A stretch of DNA of 64,000 nt from a phage. The stretch lies in the sequence record PZ445551.1. The stretch is one strand, 5' to 3'. The notes beneath the pieces are model-generated. The model was not told the origin of the DNA. It ran no database searches and worked only from the letters and a program-made list of their open reading frames with translations. Made by a program: the position numbers and the translations under genes. Of this stretch, positions 5,092 to 62,204 are shown one piece after another; position 1 is the first letter of the stretch; each line of letters starts with the position of its first letter.

Positions 5092-5475
5092 ATGAGCAAT
5101 ATCAGCAACCTGGCGGCTACTGTAAACGGTAAAGATTTTAACGGCGCTGTAGATCGTGATCCTATGTGGTGCTTATCAGTGTTTAAAGGCGATCTGGTTG
5201 AAGTTAGAACAACCGAAGGGTATAGCGATGATTATAAATGCGAGATCCATTTACACAACTGGTACACGGGTAAAACTTATGCGCTGAATCATGCGTTTAT
5301 CGGCAAGGTTGAATATAGAGAAATGATCGACGAAGAAACGGGGCAAGATTTTAGCGAGCATGTTTATATTCGTTCCGAGACATTAGCCGAACGTTTGATC
5401 GAGAAAATGAAAGCAAAAAATAAAATTAATTTATCTCATTGGATTGATATAACAAACGATCCAGCTTATCAGTAA
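5092..5475 (+). CDS. hypothetical protein (127 aa)
   Basis: track ORF; RBS acgaggaatc. Confidence 0.55.
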   Translation: MSNISNLAATVNGKDFNGAVDRDPMWCLSVFKGDLVEVRTTEGYSDDYKCEIHLHNWYTGKTYALNHAFIGKVEYREMIDEETGQDFSEHVYIRSETLAERLIEKMKAKNKINLSHWIDITNDPAYQ

Positions 5476-5490
5476 ATAACATTTCATACC

Positions 5491-5516
5491 AGGGCGCACA
5501 AAGCGCCCTTTCTTTT
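5491..5516 (+). terminator. rho-independent terminator
   Basis: agggcgc-acaa-gcgccct hairpin followed by T-rich run. Confidence 0.6.
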
Positions 5517-5722
5517 TACCTAAATAAAGATGATAGCTTTTACCTATCAAAAACGTTCACCGAAAAAAGTGAATAGATCGCGGTATCGAGCTAATCAAGG
5601 AGCAGATGAACAACCATACCATGAAGATCATAAGGCGCTTACAACGTGTTTTAGACCGCTTATTTTTAATTTCTCAATGTAACTATCTGGCAAAAACAGC
5701 CTTTTTCTTGTCTTTCCTCTTA

Positions 5723-5740
5723 AATGATAATCATTCTTAT
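5723..5740. promoter_or_regulatory. Fur-box-like site AATGATAATCATTCTTAT
   Basis: near match to the enterobacterial Fur box GATAATGATAATCATTATC. Confidence 0.35.
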
Positions 5741-5780
5741 TTATAGCTGATTATTTATGCAATAAACTGAATAATGCAAT

Positions 5781-5797
5781 AATGATAATCATTCTTA
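5781..5797. promoter_or_regulatory. Fur-box-like site AATGATAATCATTCTTA
   Basis: second copy, preceded by ATAATGCAAT. Confidence 0.35.
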
Positions 5798-6090
5798 ACT
5801 TATGACCATCTAACCTATAAAATAATAAGTTATCTAACTAAATTAAAACTAATTATCTCACCTTTATTTATAACTTACTGTTACTATCTCATTGATAACC
5901 TTATATTAAACAACAATAACCAATATAAATCATTACTAAGCTAAATATAATCTATCTAACCTTTAAAACTATAACTATAATCTATCGAATTGTTGCACAA
6001 AGTAACTATTAAATTGTTAGTAACATTACTAAATAATTAATATCCTATCTATTTATGATCTAATCTTTATCTTCCTATCTATTACCTAAA

Positions 6091-6121
6091 TAATCATTTC
6101 ATACAGTAATCATTTCATACA
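6091..6121. repeat. tandem direct repeat AATCATTTCATACA x2
   Basis: two adjacent near-identical 15-16 bp units. Confidence 0.5.
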
Positions 6122-6157
6122 ATAATTATAACAAGAAATATAATTCGCAAGCGTATC

Positions 6158-6192
6158 ATTAGCAGCCTATGCCGGACACATAGGCGGCTAAT
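6158..6192. repeat. 14-bp inverted repeat ATTAGCAGCCTATG / CATAGGCGGCTAAT around 7-nt spacer
   Basis: one mismatch; GC-rich island in AT-rich context. Confidence 0.5.
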
Positions 6193-6663
6193 AATAACGC
6201 AACTACACACCCCACATAATAACCATCACCGATAGTTATTATTTGTGCTTATGTAGCTTGCAACAATTGCAAGCGCAACAATATACATGGTATATTGTAT
6301 CCCTTACATTGTTGCGGTGCGTTATTATTAGCTAATGTTTAGAACATTGGCTATAATATAAGCTAAGTAATAAGCTATGCAATAATAAACATGGTGAATA
6401 ATGACATTGATGATCATAATGCGCCACCTTCCAGGGGGCGCTATGTGAACACAAAGAAATCTTTCTTGTCAAGAAAAAATATTGCCATTATTGCGCAAAA
6501 TTATTTATATCTGAATAGATGATTTTTCATACTATTGCCCCATATAACATACCTCATTTGTTGAGCATAGTTATAGCCTATTTGTTGAGCCTACTTTCTT
6601 AAAAGCGCAATAAATCAGAATTATCTTGATTTTTAGTCTGTTTTATAGTATAGAAAGTATGCA

Positions 6664-6679
6664 AATGATAATCATTATC
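6664..6679. promoter_or_regulatory. Fur-box-like site AATGATAATCATTATC
   Basis: 16/16 identity to the 3' 16 nt of the Fur-box consensus. Confidence 0.4.
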
Positions 6680-6849
6680 AGCTATCTTCCACGGGTAGCA
6701 CTATTTCACGCCAGATCATTTCATTTGGCAAGGTGTATATAGATGTTTAGACTTGCCAAGCCATTGATTTACTTAGAATTTATCTGTTTTGTTGTGAGTA
6801 GAGCCTTTCTTGCTCAGAAAATAATCAAAAGTCTTATAAGTCATTGAAT

Positions 6850-6874
6850 GATAATGCAAATGATAATTATTCTC
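6850..6874. promoter_or_regulatory. Fur-box-like site GATAATGCAAATGATAATTATTCTC
   Basis: repeat of the ATAATGCAA-ATGATAAT unit seen at 5771-5797. Confidence 0.35.
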
Positions 6875-7236
6875 ATTGATATTTGAGGGGGACGGTCGGC
6901 AGAAATCGGGGGGCGCTGAAAATCGCGTTAAGCACCTCTCGCAAGCGAGCAGTATTTTGCGGCAAGTTATTGATATTATTGGCTTTACGCTTATGAAAAG
7001 GGGGTGTGTCGAAATAAATCGGGTATACCGGAAAATTTTTGTGGCATAGATATTTATTTGTCTATATTATGTACAAAAGGGTGTGTTAAAAATATTAGGT
7101 ATATATAGAATAATTGATAGGGAAATCCTATACTAATTCCTCCATTAATGATGTTTCTATGTTACTGTTCTTGTAACAGATGAAAAGACGCTGTATGATG
7201 TGTGGCATGAAACGTAAATTTATAAAGGAGTCTGAT

Positions 7237-59616: not shown

Positions 59617-59692
59617 GGTTCCATAGCTCACTGACGAGAGCGCACACCTCATAAGTGTCGAGGGCAGGGATTGTAACCCTGGGGAACCTCCA
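59617..59692 (+). tRNA. tRNA-Met(CAT) (or Ile2), atypical T-loop ATTGTAA
   Basis: manual cloverleaf: acceptor GGTTCCA/GGGAACC, D-arm GCTC..GAGC, anticodon loop CTCATAA, CCA encoded. Confidence 0.6.
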
Positions 59693-59723
59693 TTTAAAAG
59701 GAGGTGCTATGCATCTCCTATAT

Positions 59724-59809
59724 GCAAGTGTGGTGGAATTGGTGATACACATTGTGCTTAAAACGCAACGCTTAAATGCTTGAGGGTTCGAATCCCTCCA
59801 CTTGCACCA
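59724..59809 (+). tRNA. tRNA-Leu(TAA), type II
   Basis: acceptor GCAAGTG/CACTTGC, anticodon loop CTTAAAA, long variable arm, T-arm GAGGG-TTCGAAT-CCCTC. Confidence 0.75.
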
Positions 59810-59824
59810 ACACCTAAAAATATC

Positions 59825-59853
59825 TTGACATTTACTTAGTTTTTTGTTATAGT
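59825..59853 (+). promoter_or_regulatory. sigma70-like promoter TTGACA-17-TATAGT
   Basis: read directly; 11 nt upstream of the tRNA-like element. Confidence 0.5.
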
Positions 59854-59864
59854 TACTATGAAAA

Positions 59865-59946
59865 CGGGGTGTATCTCACCTGACTTCTAATCAGGCGTTA
59901 ACCGAGTAATTGGAGTATGCAGGTTCGAATCCTGTCACCCCGGCCA
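59865..59946 (+). tRNA. atypical tRNA-Arg(TCT)-like element lacking a D-arm
   Basis: perfect acceptor CGGGGTG/CACCCCG, T-arm GCAGG-TTCGAAT-CCTGT, anticodon hairpin CCTGA-CTTCTAA-TCAGG, but only 7 nt between acceptor and anticodon stem and a 23-nt insert before the T-arm. Confidence 0.4.
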
Positions 59947-60009
59947 AAAAGTTTTAAAAACTACTTGACAAGCAAGATAGTTTTATGTTAGATTTAAAGT
60001 ATAATAACT

Positions 60010-60099
60010 GGAAGGTAGGGCGCAGCGGTGCGCAACCAGGTTTGAACCCTGGCCCATTGTAGCGATACGGTGATGGTTCGACTCCATTATCTTCCTCCA
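60010..60099 (+). tRNA. tRNA-Ser(TGA), type II
   Basis: acceptor GGAAGGT/ATCTTCC, anticodon loop TTTGAAC, long variable arm, CCA encoded. Confidence 0.75.
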
Positions 60100-60117
60100 A
60101 ATTCTCTTAGGAGCTTT

Positions 60118-60270
60118 ATGAATTATAAAACTATTGGACAGGTTGTTACCGGAGTTAAGATTGTAAATAATAAAGTTGTTTATGAGTATTCTAATCTTCA
60201 ACAATCTGAAGATGGTAAGAATATTCGTATGGTAAAAACAGAACAAAAAGATTCCGGTTGTTTTGAATAA
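60118..60270 (+). CDS. small hypothetical protein (50 aa) embedded in tRNA array
   Basis: track ORF 60070..60270 trimmed to ATG 60118 after RBS aggag so it no longer overlaps tRNA-Ser. Confidence 0.45.
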   Translation: MNYKTIGQVVTGVKIVNNKVVYEYSNLQQSEDGKNIRMVKTEQKDSGCFE

Positions 60271-60278
60271 TTAAAAAC

Positions 60279-60364
60279 GGTAGATTGGTGAAATGGTAGC
60301 CACAACAGTTTGCTAAACTGTCGTCGGAAACGGCGTGTAGGTTCAAGTCCTACATCTACCGCCA
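60279..60364 (+). tRNA. tRNA-Ser(GCT), type II
   Basis: acceptor GGTAGAT/ATCTACC, anticodon loop TTGCTAA, long variable arm, T-arm GTAGG-TTCAAGT-CCTAC. Confidence 0.8.
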
Positions 60365-60498
60365 AGTTATCTTTAATGTAGCTTGTAATCTTACTTTAGC
60401 AGAGTAAATCTTCGGCAAGTGGCGGTAACCACTTTACCGATACCCCAATACTTCATAGCTAAGTGCCGCAAACACTGGCTATTTTAAAGATAATTTAT

Positions 60499-60574
60499 AC
60501 ATCGTTAGCTTAGTTGGTAGAGCAAGGGGCTTTTAACTCCAAGGTCGAAGGTTCGAATCCTTCACGATGTACCA
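60499..60574 (+). tRNA. tRNA-Lys(TTT)
   Basis: acceptor ACATCGT/ACGATGT, D-arm GCTT..GAGC, anticodon loop CTTTTAA, T-arm GAAGG-TTCGAAT-CCTTC. Confidence 0.85.
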
Positions 60575-60579
60575 AACAC

Positions 60580-60666
60580 GTAGGTATCGCATAGCGGCAA
60601 TTGCTGGAGACTGTAAATCTCCTGCCCTTCGGGGCTTCGTTGGTTCGAGTCCAACTACCTGCACCA
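60580..60666 (+). tRNA. tRNA-Tyr(GTA), type II
   Basis: anticodon arm GGAGA-CTGTAAA-TCTCC, variable-arm hairpin GCCCC-TTCG-GGGC, T-arm GTTGG-TTCGAGT-CCAAC. Confidence 0.8.
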
Positions 60667-60673
60667 AATTAAA

Positions 60674-60758
60674 GATGGATTGGCCTAGTGGTTGGGCGAC
60701 GGACTGTTAATCCGTGAACGAAAGTTCTAGCAAGGTTCAAATCCTTGATCCATCGCCA
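60674..60758 (+). tRNA. tRNA-Asn(GTT) with unusually long (15-nt) variable arm
   Basis: acceptor GATGGAT/ATCCATC, anticodon arm ACGGA-CTGTTAA-TCCGT, variable hairpin GAAC-GAAA-GTTC, T-arm CAAGG-TTCAAAT-CCTTG. Confidence 0.7.
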
Positions 60759-60837
60759 AATAGTGCTTGTAGAGTTAATAGAAACCTCTAGAATTTTCTA
60801 GAATTGTAGGTATCAAATCCTACCAAGCAAATATTTT

Positions 60838-60912
60838 GCTCCTATCGTATAACGGCTATTACGGTTGCCTTGTAAGCAACTTATCAGGGTTCGAGTCCTT
60901 GTGGGAGCACCA
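60838..60912 (+). tRNA. tRNA-Thr(TGT)
   Basis: acceptor GCTCCTA/TGGGAGC, anticodon arm GTTGC-CTTGTAA-GCAAC, T-arm CAGGG-TTCGAGT-CCTTG. Confidence 0.8.
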
Positions 60913-60935
60913 ATTTTAACTCTAAAGGAGTGTAT

Positions 60936-61259
60936 GTGACAGAAAAAGAGTTAGAGAAATATTTTAATATCAATGTTTTCGATGGTTTTGATGATATTGA
61001 AGATGTTGAAAGATATTATGAAGTAGAGTTAGATAAGGATAACATTGTAATTCTTTCTGCCACTTATGATTGTGCATATTATGAAGGCGAATCTCACGTT
61101 TATTTTTATGATATGAAAACATCTTTGTTTTATGAAGTACACGCATATCATTGTTCTTGTTATGGCTTAGAAGGTCAGTGGGAACCTGAAGAAATAGGTG
61201 ATTTGGACTTTACTATTGCATATCTAAACAGACGTGGTTCATCTACTATTTTAAAATAA
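60936..61259 (+). CDS. hypothetical acidic protein (about 107 aa) embedded in tRNA array
   Basis: track ORF 60930..61259; likely GTG start at 60936, 5 nt after RBS aaggag. Confidence 0.5.
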   Translation: MTEKELEKYFNINVFDGFDDIEDVERYYEVELDKDNIVILSATYDCAYYEGESHVYFYDMKTSLFYEVHAYHCSCYGLEGQWEPEEIGDLDFTIAYLNRRGSSTILK

Positions 61260-61273
61260 ATATCAAAAGCCTC

Positions 61274-61303
61274 TTGACAAAGGGGCTAATAATATGTTAG
61301 AGT
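61274..61303 (+). promoter_or_regulatory. sigma70-like promoter TTGACA-18-TAGAGT
   Basis: read directly; about 12 nt upstream of tRNA-Gly. Confidence 0.5.
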
Positions 61304-61314
61304 AATATTATTAA

Positions 61315-61389
61315 GCGGGTATAGTGTTAATGGTAGCATATGAGGTTTCCACCCTCCAGGTGCAGGTTCAAGTCCTGTTACTCGCTCCA
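61315..61389 (+). tRNA. tRNA-Gly(TCC)
   Basis: acceptor GCGGGTA/TACTCGC, anticodon loop TTTCCAC, T-arm GCAGG-TTCAAGT-CCTGT. Confidence 0.8.
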
Positions 61390-61488
61390 AGATTATTTAA
61401 ATGGAATCGTTAGAGAAAATTTCTCTTTTCGCTCATGGTTTTCTCCTTCAAACTCTAGCGGTTCTTTTTAAGTGATTTTTTAGTTTAT

Positions 61489-61563
61489 TGGAGATTAGCC
61501 TAGTGGGAAGGCAACGGCCTTTGAAGTCGTGATGACTAGGTTCGATTCCTAGATCTCCAGCCA
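61489..61563 (+). tRNA. tRNA-Gln(TTG)
   Basis: acceptor TGGAGAT/ATCTCCA, anticodon arm ACGGC-CTTTGAA-GTCGT, T-arm CTAGG-TTCGATT-CCTAG. Confidence 0.8.
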
Positions 61564-61570
61564 ATATTTA

Positions 61571-61646
61571 CAGTGCGTAGCGCAGTTGGTAGCGTGGGAG
61601 CCTTGGACGCTTCAGGTCGCAGGTTCGAGTCCTGCCGCACTGACCA
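61571..61646 (+). tRNA. tRNA-Pro(TGG)
   Basis: acceptor CAGTGCG/CGCACTG, D-arm GCGC-AGTTGGTA-GCGT, anticodon loop CTTGGAC, T-arm GCAGG-TTCGAGT-CCTGC. Confidence 0.85.
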
Positions 61647-61651
61647 AATTT

Positions 61652-61726
61652 GCAGAGATAGCTGAGACGGATTAGTGCTACCCTGAAAAGGTAGAAAGGA
61701 TGGATCGTTACCATCTCTCTGCACCA
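61652..61726 (+). tRNA. tRNA-Phe(GAA), atypical T-loop ATCGTTA
   Basis: acceptor GCAGAGA/TCTCTGC, anticodon arm CTACC-CTGAAAA-GGTAG, T-stem GATGG/CCATC. Confidence 0.75.
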
Positions 61727-61803
61727 AATAACACCATCCAAGGAGTAGACTTGGTTAACTGTCAATAGCACATTGAGGCTTCTTACAGTGGTGTACTTAT
61801 TAT

Positions 61804-61888
61804 GGCTAAGTGGTGGAATGGTATACACGATACGCTTAGAACGTATTGCCCCAAGGGATTGTGAGTTCGAGTCTCACCTTAGCTACCA
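61804..61888 (+). tRNA. tRNA-Leu(TAG), type II
   Basis: acceptor GGCTAAG/CTTAGCT, anticodon arm ATACG-CTTAGAA-CGTAT, long variable arm, T-arm GTGAG-TTCGAGT-CTCAC. Confidence 0.8.
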
Positions 61889-61903
61889 AATTATTACAGA
61901 TTG

Positions 61904-61982
61904 TGCGGGATAGAGGAGTCTGGTCGTCCTCGCCAGTTTCATATGCTGGAGATCATCGGTTCGAATCCGATTCCCGCCTCCA
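61904..61982 (+). tRNA. tRNA-Met(CAT) (second CAT tRNA; elongator Met, initiator or Ile2)
   Basis: anticodon arm CCAGT-TTCATAT-GCTGG, T-arm ATCGG-TTCGAAT-CCGAT, acceptor with mismatched 1-72 pair. Confidence 0.7.
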
Positions 61983-62040
61983 ATAAATACCTCCCTTCTG
62001 GTGTAATGATTAAGTTACATTGACACTTCAAGGAACTCAT

Positions 62041-62123
62041 AGCCGGGTAGATTTAAAAGAGTATGGTACTCAATATGGCTCCAAACCATAGATCAAGGGG
62101 TTCGATTCCTCACCTTGCTGCCA
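62041..62123 (+). tRNA. atypical tRNA-Trp(CCA)-like element (possible pseudo-tRNA)
   Basis: anticodon arm TATGG-CTCCAAA-CCATA and T-loop TTCGATT present, but 11-nt insert between acceptor 5' strand and D-arm and imperfect acceptor/T stems. Confidence 0.3.
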
Positions 62124-62128
62124 ATTAT

Positions 62129-62204
62129 TGTGGTATCGTACAGATGGTTAGTACACTCGACCGATAATCGAGAAACAACGGTTCGACTCCGTTTACCACG
62201 ACCA
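62129..62204 (+). tRNA. tRNA-Ile(GAT)
   Basis: acceptor TGTGGTA/TACCACG, D-arm GTAC-AGATGGTTA-GTAC, anticodon arm CTCGA-CCGATAA-TCGAG, T-arm AACGG-TTCGACT-CCGTT. Confidence 0.8.

Follow-up and report, generated by a model that had tools for sequence, protein, structure and literature searches.

Fur-box-like sites in the terminal non-coding DNA and a second control region of the phi92-like Escherichia phage VivaForever

Iron metabolism in enterobacteria is under the master regulator Fur, and sites resembling its operators in the non-coding DNA of a lytic phage raise the question whether they are bound by the Fur protein of the host, and to what end, or whether they form a phage operator which happens to look alike in AT-rich DNA. 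The window analyzed here, i.e. the whole 64-kb stretch of DNA under study, derives from Escherichia phage VivaForever, a phi92-like virulent myovirus, and all four sites lie in a non-coding hub at the genome terminus. Literature searches found no prior description of Fur boxes in phi92-like phages, nor anything relevant on the transcriptomes of these phages or on a connection with Fur.

Four Fur-box sites in the terminal hub

As outlined in Table 1, the four sites are accompanied by a terminator, a terminal repeat, a structured element and several promoter-like pairs. Their common core, ATGATAATYATT, is found at 5724-5735, 5782-5793, 6665-6676 and 6860-6871, always on the + strand and always in the hub; four copies in 64 kb compare with 0.02 expected, and 0/100 shuffles reached four. 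That four sites share a core, as the sequence-only reading had it, is correct for all of them, and ATGATAATYATT is absent from the rest of the 64 kb. Positions 6664-6679 read AATGATAATCATTATC and are identical to the last 16 nt of the Fur box GATAATGATAATCATTATC, precisely as had been claimed for this copy, with the full 19-mer at 6661-6679 carrying two mismatches to it (17/19 matching). The window's only perfect 7-1-7 palindrome, TGATAATCATTATCA (also given as TGATAATNATTATCA), lies at 6666-6680. A longer repeat had furthermore been proposed for two of the copies: the shared flank ATAATGCAA(T)AATGATAAT is indeed present at sites 2 and 4, but with a difference of one base. At site 4 three phased 19-mer matches overlap. 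Both the inverted-repeat 7-1-7 core and the units in 6-bp register of an E. coli-type Fur box are present among the hub sites.

Table 1 Features of the non-coding hub, in window positions. Scores of Fur-like sites are given in bits for the best 21-bp matrix match on the E. coli and on the AT-rich hub background.
Feature	Position	Strand	Best 21-bp match	Bits (E. coli / hub)	Basis or remark
Intrinsic terminator, closes last gene block	5491..5509	+			terminator scan
Fur box site 1, AAATGATAATCATTCTTATTT	5720..5742	.	5722-5742	28.8 / 22.4	
Fur box site 2	5774..5800	.	5780-5800	19.2 / 13.3	two overlapping units 6 bp apart, second unit 15.9 bits
Weak promoter-like pair TTAACT-17-TAAAAT	5795-5823				-35 hexamer overlapped by site 2
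G-poor AT-rich tract, between sites 2 and 3	5800..6150	+			G = 4.3% of + strand
Conserved structured element, hairpin and multi-helix junction, between sites 2 and 3	6158..6326	+			RNAalifold
Weak fifth Fur-like site	6397..6421	.		11.8 / 7.0, alone not significant	two 19-mer matches, 5 mismatches each, 6 bp apart
Direct terminal repeat	6588..6930	.			end-to-end alignment with both annotated phi92 repeats
Fur box site 3, perfect palindrome	6657..6683	.	6663-6683	19.9 / 15.0	second unit 17.1 bits; inside terminal repeat
Predicted promoter TTGGCA-17-TAGACT, strongest sigma-70-like in hub, between sites 3 and 4	6725..6753	+			score 13.0
Promoter-like pair TTGAAT-18-TATTCT	6844..6873	+			score 7.1; site 4 covers spacer and -10 hexamer
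Fur box site 4	6850..6880	.	6858-6878	27.5 / 22.2	overlapping units in 6-bp phase, second unit 17.6 bits; inside terminal repeat

Scoring was carried out with a symmetrised 21-bp position weight matrix (PWM) derived from 19 ChIP-supported E. coli sites (Table S6, PMC10219339; entries of garbled length were left out), the training sites being MEME predictions within ChIP peaks and not footprints. Real E. coli sites reach 7.0-24.6 bits in leave-one-out scoring (median 19). Site 1 outscores all 19 training sites, and three phage boxes attain 27.5-30.4 bits versus 25.3 for the best of the 19, the matrix maximum being 31.3. The seven best matches of the window all belong to the four sites, the secondary matches at sites 2, 3 and 4 (15.9-17.6 bits) being offset by exactly 6 bp, and the remaining 62 kb hold no match above 10.8. 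Dinucleotide shuffling of the hub (2000 runs) gave on average 0.029 sites of at least 13 bits, with a maximum of 2, compared with the 4 observed; 22 bits were reached in 0/2000 shuffles, and a third-order Markov model of the hub never produced four sites. All four sites hence score at the level of supported E. coli sites and above matched background. Scores indistinguishable from AT-rich DNA had been named as grounds for abandoning the Fur assignment; since the scores are significant over AT-rich shuffles, these grounds fall away. In a scan of 144 kb of the genome (record positions 144101-146096, in a tail protein gene, lie outside it) strong boxes were confined to two non-coding regions and absent from the other ~141 kb (37% GC). 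For comparison, the 18-mer of site 4 matched 84 mostly unrelated contigs in IMG/VR, one of them of phage-genome size.

The direct terminal repeat (343 bp) aligns to NC_023693.1 1-343 and 148270-148612, the annotated 343-bp terminal repeats of phi92. By homology to phi92 only, it is assigned to the physical genome ends, which appear as a single collapsed copy in the VivaForever assembly. The last gene is followed by sites 1 and 2. Inside the repeat, site 3 starts 75 nt from the left genome end and site 4 ends 52 nt before the right repeat boundary; each of these two would thus occur once at either end of packaged DNA and precede the leftmost early genes. The last gene block ends with a Gp30.8-like gene (5092-5475, matching Pfam Phage_30_8) and the terminator, a 7-bp stem (6 of its pairs G-C) with a downstream T run, which all relatives have kept. 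In the interval from site 2 to site 3, the G-poor tract carries YTATCKNAY repeats and is replaced in relatives by a different but equally G-poor sequence. For the adjacent structured element RNAalifold predicts 47 pairs over three lineages, 9 of them with compensatory changes; its U-G pairs favour the + strand, and it is the best-conserved part of the hub in Citrobacter phage Tr1. Neither the hub nor the second control region gave anything credible in Rfam scans. A host origin of the hub was considered and rejected, only a 46-nt terminus-spanning segment, which holds no Fur box, matching E. coli chromosomes; the chromosomal element with this segment starts just past the position of site 4.

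Conservation and the second array

Four lineages of the Stephanstirmvirinae, namely Justusliebigvirus, Phapecoctavirus, a Klebsiella-phage clade and Citrobacter phage Tr1, keep boxes at matching alignment columns, and the hub sites persist in them with altered sequences and some turnover. The box sequences differ among the lineages while their scores stay high amid flanks that are only ~50-70% identical, the changes including the uninformative central base and paired substitutions without net loss of score. In the column of site 1 the score is 19.6 in Phapecoctavirus, 18.3 in the Klebsiella clade and 28.8 in AMO3598 despite two substitutions. Site 2 scores lower in Tr1 (16.2) and in the Klebsiella clade (13.2) and is lost in Phapecoctavirus, where a new box is found elsewhere. 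Site 3 is kept in Phapecoctavirus (19.0-26.7) and Tr1 (22.2) and has shifted by 26 bp in the Klebsiella clade; in three lineages it stays beside a conserved terminus-proximal sequence. Site 4 scores 24.6-26.3 in Phapecoctavirus, with a 6-bp indel corresponding to one hexamer unit, and 20.8-22.5 in the Klebsiella clade, with five base changes; it is absent in Tr1, in which a gene flanked by Fur boxes received no function from Pfam or BLASTP. Box number is maintained while single sites turn over. Altogether, more than 30 phage boxes from seven lineages vary in the way the host matrix does (GATAAT/GAGAAT/GATAAC, ATTATC/ATTCTC, free central base).

The second Fur-rich region, with its array at PP925843.1 99270-99400, lies outside the window, 11 kb from the genome ends, and consists of four to five separate boxes spaced 23-29 bp apart in non-coding DNA, an array that is conserved into the Vequintavirinae. 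The four sites of the hub are part of a larger, family-wide set, with about 8-10 near-consensus boxes per genome in total. Both Fur-rich regions border iteron-like repeats and tracts, AT-rich or poor in G, of the kind usual at origins.

Probable host Fur binding and its possible purpose

The suggestion that host Fur binds these sites is strongly supported at the level of sequence by the matrix scores, the 6-bp phased sub-sites, the conservation with turnover and the absence of a phage Fur, and we regard binding of the hub sites by host Fur as highly probable. Fur boxes at genome ends suggest that the phage may read or manipulate the iron status of its host. The explanation we prefer, to which we would give somewhat less than an even chance as a whole, is that host-Fur sites are maintained as operators or roadblocks for transcription of the terminal region. 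In an iron-replete cell, Fur-Fe2+ dimers would occupy the phage boxes. Fur sites are composed of hexamer units, and clusters of overlapping units allow at least two dimers to bind (PMC2189734); the 6-bp phased sub-sites found here accordingly point to two or more Fur dimers per site. Bound Fur would then act as operator or roadblock for transcripts starting in the terminal region, the candidate targets being the promoter-like elements at sites 2 and 4, the strong one between sites 3 and 4 and possibly the structured hub RNA. Under iron limitation Fur would be released and the terminal-region transcripts would increase, so that an early or regulatory programme might be partly coupled to the iron supply which the ribonucleotide reductases of the phage require. 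In E. coli, Fur clusters mostly overlap, and repress, promoters (PMC2189734). That transcriptional repression is the outcome of Fur binding in the phage is possible, if slightly less likely than not.

The promoter context was assessed with a rough, hand-written sigma-70 matrix, on which all promoter scores depend. In the second control region the near-consensus early promoters score 13-15, the same range as the predicted promoter between sites 3 and 4, and none of these strongest sigma-70-like promoters overlaps a Fur box; the boxes are located upstream of strong early promoters, not over them. The predicted promoter at 6725-6753 is not clearly conserved in Phapecoctavirus, and the spacing of TTGAAT-18-TATTCT at site 4 is not kept there; the same arrangement, as TTGAAT-18-NAGAAT, encloses the conserved Fur box in the phages PVP-SE1 and CR3. 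A simple scan found promoter-like sites as numerous in the hub as in shuffles, and no positionally conserved promoter-box pair across genera was found in the alignments with the rough matrix. Several observations touch on the preferred explanation. The promoter-like hexamers at sites 2 and 4 and the enclosed-box arrangement of PVP-SE1 and CR3 agree with it, and the 6-bp indel separating the genera at site 4 fits a hexamer and cluster architecture. Against repression, the box-overlapping pairs are weak, score about as shuffled AT-rich DNA does and are not conserved in position between genera; growth on iron-replete laboratory media precludes a tight Fur shut-off of essential early genes, and the 4-5 separate near-consensus boxes of the second region exceed the need of one operator.

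The boxes might soak up host Fur instead of controlling a phage promoter, a reading we consider rather unlikely. About 8-10 near-consensus boxes on every replicating genome would titrate Fur and thereby derepress iron uptake and RyhB iron sparing, and the resulting iron supply would feed the iron-dependent ribonucleotide reductases encoded by the phage (NrdA/B-like and NrdD/G). Multiplicity (8 strong boxes per genome) and near-consensus scores, both expected of such a sponge, are present, with affinity being deduced from the scores; the three boxes that surpass all 19 E. coli sites in closeness to consensus, the arrays of 4-5 non-coding boxes remote from the strongest promoters and the box count maintained despite turnover fit as well. 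Fur amounts to roughly 5,000-10,000 copies per cell, a pool comparable to ~10 boxes × 2 dimers × at least 100 genomes. In the Fur titration assay (FURTA), reportedly described by Stojiljkovic et al. in 1994, multicopy Fur boxes are said to derepress the regulon; likewise, many high-affinity boxes would sit here on a replicating molecule and derepression would be expected, although the FURTA effect arises artificially, from sites cloned in the laboratory. Titration of Fur is also to be expected from near-consensus boxes carried on a replicating genome. As the main purpose, however, titration would pay only with ongoing host transcription and translation during the lytic cycle, and a pure sponge does not need several boxes at fixed alignment columns and at a fixed distance from the genome end. 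It is more doubtful still that Fur bound close to the ends and beside repeat arrays helps to build a nucleoprotein complex for a DNA transaction, repression not being the purpose. The candidate transactions are cutting by terminase and packaging at the boundaries of the repeat, initiation of replication, entry of the DNA, and removal of H-NS from AT-rich DNA as it enters. The short distances of sites 3 and 4 to the repeat boundaries, the position of site 3 beside the terminus-proximal sequence kept in three lineages and the iteron-like repeats and origin-typical tracts next to both regions would suit such a role, and boxes upstream of strong early promoters would fit anti-silencing of the kind that Nandal et al. 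reportedly described for Fur at E. coli ftnA in 2010. Host proteins in terminal DNA transactions have a precedent in IHF, which serves lambda cos and P1 pac; however, we know of no precedent for Fur in packaging, replication or DNA entry. A packaging role furthermore cannot account for the second array, which lies 11 kb from the ends, and the E. coli element sharing the terminus without a Fur box, together with the lack of site 4 in Tr1, places the boxes outside the minimal terminus signal.

A phage operator that happens to look like a Fur box had been offered as the other possibility by the sequence-only reading and is now disfavoured by the results that speak for Fur binding. In this case a DNA-binding protein encoded by the phage would use the sites or compete with Fur at them. 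Palindromic sites would suit any dimeric helix-turn-helix protein, the phage possesses many small uncharacterised early proteins, and phi92 gp005 is annotated as a predicted transcription regulator. Nevertheless, a matrix built from host chromosomal sites only gives scores near its maximum, more than 30 boxes in seven lineages vary as this matrix does, and E. coli Fur, compared by tblastn with 50,697 phage records, gave no match in Stephanstirmvirinae or Vequintavirinae, for which reason a phage-encoded Fur-like repressor was rejected; we regard a phage operator as very improbable. Chance resemblance or functionless relics could be invoked for a hub with 31.7% GC, as GATAAT-like words are frequent in such DNA. 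Neither dinucleotide shuffles nor the third-order Markov model ever yield four sites, though, the ~141 kb elsewhere in the genome hold no boxes, and high-scoring boxes persist amid poorly conserved flanks; by the shuffle, Markov and conservation results this explanation is effectively refuted.

Relation to known systems and significance for the phage group

Like the chromosomal Fur operators at iron-uptake promoters of E. coli (fhuA, fecI, mntH, fepA, entC and others), the phage sites combine the 19/21-bp motif with a 7-1-7 inverted repeat and overlapping units in 6-bp phase; the phage sequence AATAATCATTCTC, for example, agrees with the boxes of fhuA and mntH, and GATAACCATT(A/C)TCAT with that of fecI. 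In contrast to these operators the phage sites lie in long non-coding terminal DNA and not over the -35/-10 elements of an identifiable gene promoter, and several are nearer to consensus than any host site used. Host Fur also regulates phage-borne DNA in temperate phages. In Shiga-toxin phages a Fur box stands directly upstream of the cargo gene stx1, and in lambdoid coliphages one box stands directly upstream of sitABCD, an iron-related cargo serving the lysogen (PMC6969025). VivaForever, in contrast, is lytic, and its boxes, at least 8, lie in non-coding control or terminal regions with no iron-related gene adjacent. A Fur-regulated cargo promoter of the stx1/sitABCD type was rejected, the next gene, whose product is small and uncharacterised, beginning ~300 bp downstream of site 4 and the group being virulent: the phage carries structural and replication genes, the taxonomy of its relatives is that of a virulent myovirus group, and no integrase was found among the annotated features listed. 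Cyanophage genomes bear PhoB boxes and NtcA sites at promoters of genes such as pstS and phoA and thus likewise place sites of a host nutrient sensor on a virulent phage, tying infection to nutrient status; here, by contrast, the regulator is Fur, a repressor, the nutrient is iron, and the sites lie in a terminal repeat and in non-coding arrays. Sites for abundant host proteins tens of bp from ends or cut sites are known as well, with IHF at lambda cosB and P1 pac and DnaA boxes near the injection-stop region of T5, although the protein is a different one here and the second Fur array is non-terminal.

For the family as a whole we tentatively raise the possibility, on balance unlikely, that a large group of virulent myoviruses infecting Enterobacteriaceae, the Stephanstirmvirinae and at least part of the Vequintavirinae, have kept arrays of near-consensus Fur boxes from before their divergence and deliberately capture host Fur, either as a sponge or as an iron checkpoint. 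If so, derepressed host iron acquisition and iron sparing would supply the phage ribonucleotide reductases in the former case, and in the latter iron would gate events at the genome termini and the second control region.

The sites are short, precisely mapped and conserved in many isolates, and phi92-like and phAPEC8-like phages are in therapy development against encapsulated and uropathogenic E. coli, which are iron-limited in the host. If Fur is bound, iron status may influence the early programme, the replication or the yield of these phages, and efficacy results obtained in rich medium may then fail to carry over to blood or urine. Titration of Fur by the arrays would alter the iron uptake of the infected host, and with it the TonB-dependent receptors which other phages and colicins exploit. 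A Fur sponge or an iron checkpoint, if real, would constitute a novel means by which a lytic phage reads or rewires a global regulator of its host via DNA sites alone, without a phage protein.

Probable Fur boxes in a gene-free, putative control region

Between 5400 and 7300, the window matches the reverse strand of Escherichia phage VivaForever (PP925843.1) at 100% identity and ~50 phi92-like members of Justusliebigvirus (subfamily Stephanstirmvirinae) at 90-97%. No credible gene was found in its non-coding hub at 5480-7180, and the curated records of phi92, phAPEC8, ZCKP1 and ukendt annotate zero genes at the equivalent position. Upstream, the gene-free stretch is bordered by a Gp30.8-like gene; downstream it gives way to the small early genes, the first of which has its ORF start at 7180 or 7238. 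The ten tiny 'hypothetical protein' CDSs across the hub in the VivaForever record look like over-calls. Elsewhere in the window, 15 tRNA genes form a cluster on the + strand (59617-62204).

The sequence-only reading had located four Fur-box-like sites in the hub by a shared motif, and ATGATAATYATT indeed occurs exactly four times in the 64 kb, at those places, with 0.02 occurrences expected. Sites 1, 2, 3 and 4 show 5, 3, 2 and 4 mismatches to the 19-bp Fur consensus, respectively, site 4 consisting of three overlapping consensus matches 6 bp apart; a further but weaker pair was seen at 6397-6421. Furthermore, the perfect 7-1-7 palindrome TGATAATNATTATCA at 6666-6680 is the sole one in the window. 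The ATTCT(T/C) common to the hub sites departs from the textbook ATTATC, a deviation which is frequent in genuine E. coli sites, e.g. fhuA, mntH and fecI.

For scoring, a symmetrised 21-bp position weight matrix (PWM) was derived from 19 E. coli sites (Table S6 of PMC10219339), which lie inside Fur ChIP-seq peaks at Fur-repressed genes and are MEME predictions, not footprints. As outlined in the table, the hub sites can be compared with real E. coli sites, which reach 7.0-24.6 bits on the same matrix when left out one at a time and at most 25.3 bits when included, the maximum being 31.3 bits. The top seven hits of the whole window all fall within the four hub sites and include secondary ones offset by exactly 6 bp, a displacement that marks clusters of Fur sites according to Chen et al. 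(PMC2189734). No hit above 10.8 bits was observed in the other 62 kb. The resemblance to Fur boxes also withstood comparison with shuffled sequence: four sites of at least 13 bits stand against a mean of 0.029 and a maximum of 2 in 2000 dinucleotide-preserving shuffles of the hub, and four sites were never reached under a third-order Markov model with the hub as training sequence.

Features of the hub and the second array, with Fur PWM scores (bits) in the window and at the homologous sites of relatives
Feature	Position	E. coli background	AT-rich hub background	Phapecoctavirus	Klebsiella-phage clade	Citrobacter phage Tr1	Remark
Gp30.8-like gene	5092-5475						Pfam PF06019
Terminator of Gp30.8-like gene	5491-5509
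Site 1	5722-5742	28.8	22.4	19.6	18.3	spacing variant
Site 2	5780-5800	19.2	13.3	lost; new box elsewhere, 15.9-20.0	13.2	16.2
Site 3	6663-6683	19.9	15.0	19.0-26.7	shifted by 26 bp	22.2
Strongest sigma-70-like promoter of hub	6725-6753 (+)						TTGGCA-17-TAGACT, in terminal repeat between sites 3 and 4
Site 4	6858-6878	27.5	22.2	24.6-26.3; 6-bp indel (one hexamer unit)	20.8-22.5; five base changes	absent
Second array of phi92	NC_023693.1 136990-137103 (locus L094, 2991-3104)

Conservation of the boxes and a second array

The homologous regions of other Stephanstirmvirinae lineages were scored in the same way (see table): Phapecoctavirus (phAPEC8, ZCKP1, ukendt, SF1-1 and phiWec181), with patchy ~70-80% identity across roughly a quarter to half of the hub, a Klebsiella-phage clade (KP13-26 and phi1_175008), and Citrobacter phage Tr1, whose hub is mostly unalignable and carries an extra 13.4-bit box further along. 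In the Justusliebigvirus AMO3598, two positions of site 1 are changed and the score is not lowered, and the change in site 4 is confined to the uninformative central base. Shuffle tests of the phAPEC8 and ZCKP1 hubs gave 3-4 observed sites versus 0.03-0.04 expected. Retained positions together with turnover within the host matrix are what one would expect of transcription-factor sites under selection. Tr1 also has boxes of 25.8 and 17.4 bits just upstream of its hub (OR515479.1; locus L092, 1046-1066 and 1153-1173), placed on either side of the promoter region and start codon for a 156-aa protein of unknown function, which may be the product of a Fur-controlled phage gene.

In a PWM scan that covered 144 of VivaForever's 146 kb, only one further place besides the hub held strong boxes (PP925843.1 99288-99384; locus L093, 5184-5280). 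It is ~11 kb away from the hub, beyond the limits of the window, and its four adjacent boxes score 17.4, 21.9, 30.4 and 25.2 bits. The corresponding array of phi92 comprises five boxes of 20.6-30.4 bits between gp223 and gp225; Phapecoctavirus DE16 has four boxes of different sequence with a regular 29-bp spacing, and among the Vequintavirinae a single 26.7-bit box (Salmonella phage PVP-SE1) and four boxes of 19.7-27.6 bits (Cronobacter phage CR3) occupy the homologous position. The four hub sites are thus part of an old, family-wide feature.

The second array lies in a non-coding region of roughly 1.5 kb, beside three ~60-bp tandem repeats; early promoters close to the consensus are found there too, as is a ~780-bp block with ~99% identity between Justusliebigvirus and Phapecoctavirus. 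This block contains a ~125-nt element (L093 4940-5065; PP925843.1 about 99044-99169), which closely follows a near-consensus promoter (TTGACA-17-TATACT) and shows 72-85% conservation across many myoviruses of Klebsiella, Cronobacter, Salmonella and Pectobacterium. Rfam yielded no match to the element, which may represent a widespread phage non-coding RNA.

The genome terminus and neighbouring elements

The genome ends of VivaForever were deduced from phi92 (NC_023693.1), in which the counterpart of window 5480-6930 extends to the last base of the record, the right direct terminal repeat being annotated over its final 343 bp and the identical 343 bp opening the record as the left repeat. Because the alignment with phi92 puts this repeat at window 6588-6930, sites 3 and 4 lie inside it, starting 75 nt from its left and ending 52 nt short of its right boundary, respectively; packaged DNA would thus contain two copies of each. 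The other two, sites 1 and 2, are located ~800 bp upstream of the right repeat, directly downstream of the last gene.

Between sites 2 and 3, a 350-nt tract (5800-6150) has only 4.3% G on the + strand; it contains YTATCKNAY repeats, and relatives carry a different, equally G-poor (A/C-rich) sequence there. An unstructured RNA leader, an unwinding element or iterons are possible interpretations. Conservation within the hub is highest in the adjacent segment (6158-6326, +), which holds a conserved multi-helix structure of 47 predicted pairs. Among Justusliebigvirus, Phapecoctavirus and Citrobacter phage Tr1, the three lineages compared, 9 of these pairs show compensatory changes. The structure is made up of a hairpin and a multi-helix junction closed by AATAATAACGC / GCGTTATTATT. 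Rfam gave no match; either a non-coding RNA or a structure at the DNA level is conceivable.

The segment across the right repeat boundary (window 6905-6950; GAAAATCGCGTTA before and AGCACCTCTCGCAA after it), with gapped similarity from ~6878, matches an unannotated stretch at ~96% identity in 505 of 5426 complete E. coli genomes, e.g. NZ_CP019953.1 4983139-4983184 (locus L099, 2501-2546). This stretch lies within a ~2.9-kb CDS-free region, AT-rich where read, ~1.3 kb from a tRNA-Leu gene, and may belong to a chromosomal island or satellite with a phi92-type terminus or packaging signal.

Ligand and role of the boxes

When 50,697 phage records were searched by tblastn with E. coli Fur, no Fur homologue turned up in these phage groups, and the matrix built from host sites alone gives near-maximal scores on the phage boxes. 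All recorded hosts are Enterobacterales, which as far as is known share the E. coli-type Fur specificity, except in 'Campylobacter phage' and 'Acinetobacter phage' records near-identical to the coliphages, whose host labels look wrong. For these reasons host Fur is by far the most economical ligand, and it very probably binds the predicted boxes. Several 'Campylobacter phage' records (MG065639, MG065645, MG065656, MG065689) are 95% identical to VivaForever and are probably mislabelled or contaminant assemblies.

The phage boxes share their motif with chromosomal Fur operators. PhoB and NtcA sites occur in lytic cyanophages, and in temperate phages a Fur box precedes the cargo gene stx1. Fur boxes upstream of the temperate-phage cargo genes sitABCD have been described as well (PMC6969025). 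Our literature search returned no account of virulent coliphages with Fur-box arrays in the terminal repeat and in non-coding control regions; in the rV5 genome paper a non-coding box is mentioned, but Fur is not.

Promoters were scored with a rough, hand-written sigma-70 matrix. Promoter-like pairs overlap site 2 (TTAACT-17-TAAAAT) and site 4 (TTGAAT-18-TATTCT), and a TTGAAT-18-NAGAAT frame as at site 4 surrounds the conserved box of PVP-SE1 and CR3. Both pairs are weak, their spacing is not kept in Phapecoctavirus, and promoter-like matches are no more frequent in the hub than in shuffles. No Fur box is carried by the strongest promoter-like sites, namely the near-consensus promoters in the second region and the site at 6725-6753, which is a candidate for the first early promoter of the entering DNA. 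The near-consensus strength of the boxes, their multiplicity and the missing promoter overlap would also suit a sponge that titrates Fur, as would the iron-dependent reductases encoded by the phage; ~8-10 boxes per genome, multiplied by genome copy number, approach the Fur pool as judged from FURTA and Fur abundance. We regard titration as rather unlikely. An architectural role of Fur at the genome ends, suggested by the position of sites 3 and 4 near the repeat boundaries, appears more improbable still: the second array is internal, site 4 is missing in Tr1, and the E. coli element sharing the terminus-spanning segment begins just past the position of site 4 and is without a Fur box.

The default action of Fur is classical repression, and most E. 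coli Fur clusters overlap promoters (PMC2189734). We infer that operator or roadblock function ranks ahead of titration, and titration ahead of an architectural role. Tentatively, the single most likely outcome is that Fur bound at the boxes would act as an operator or roadblock for transcription in the terminal control region.
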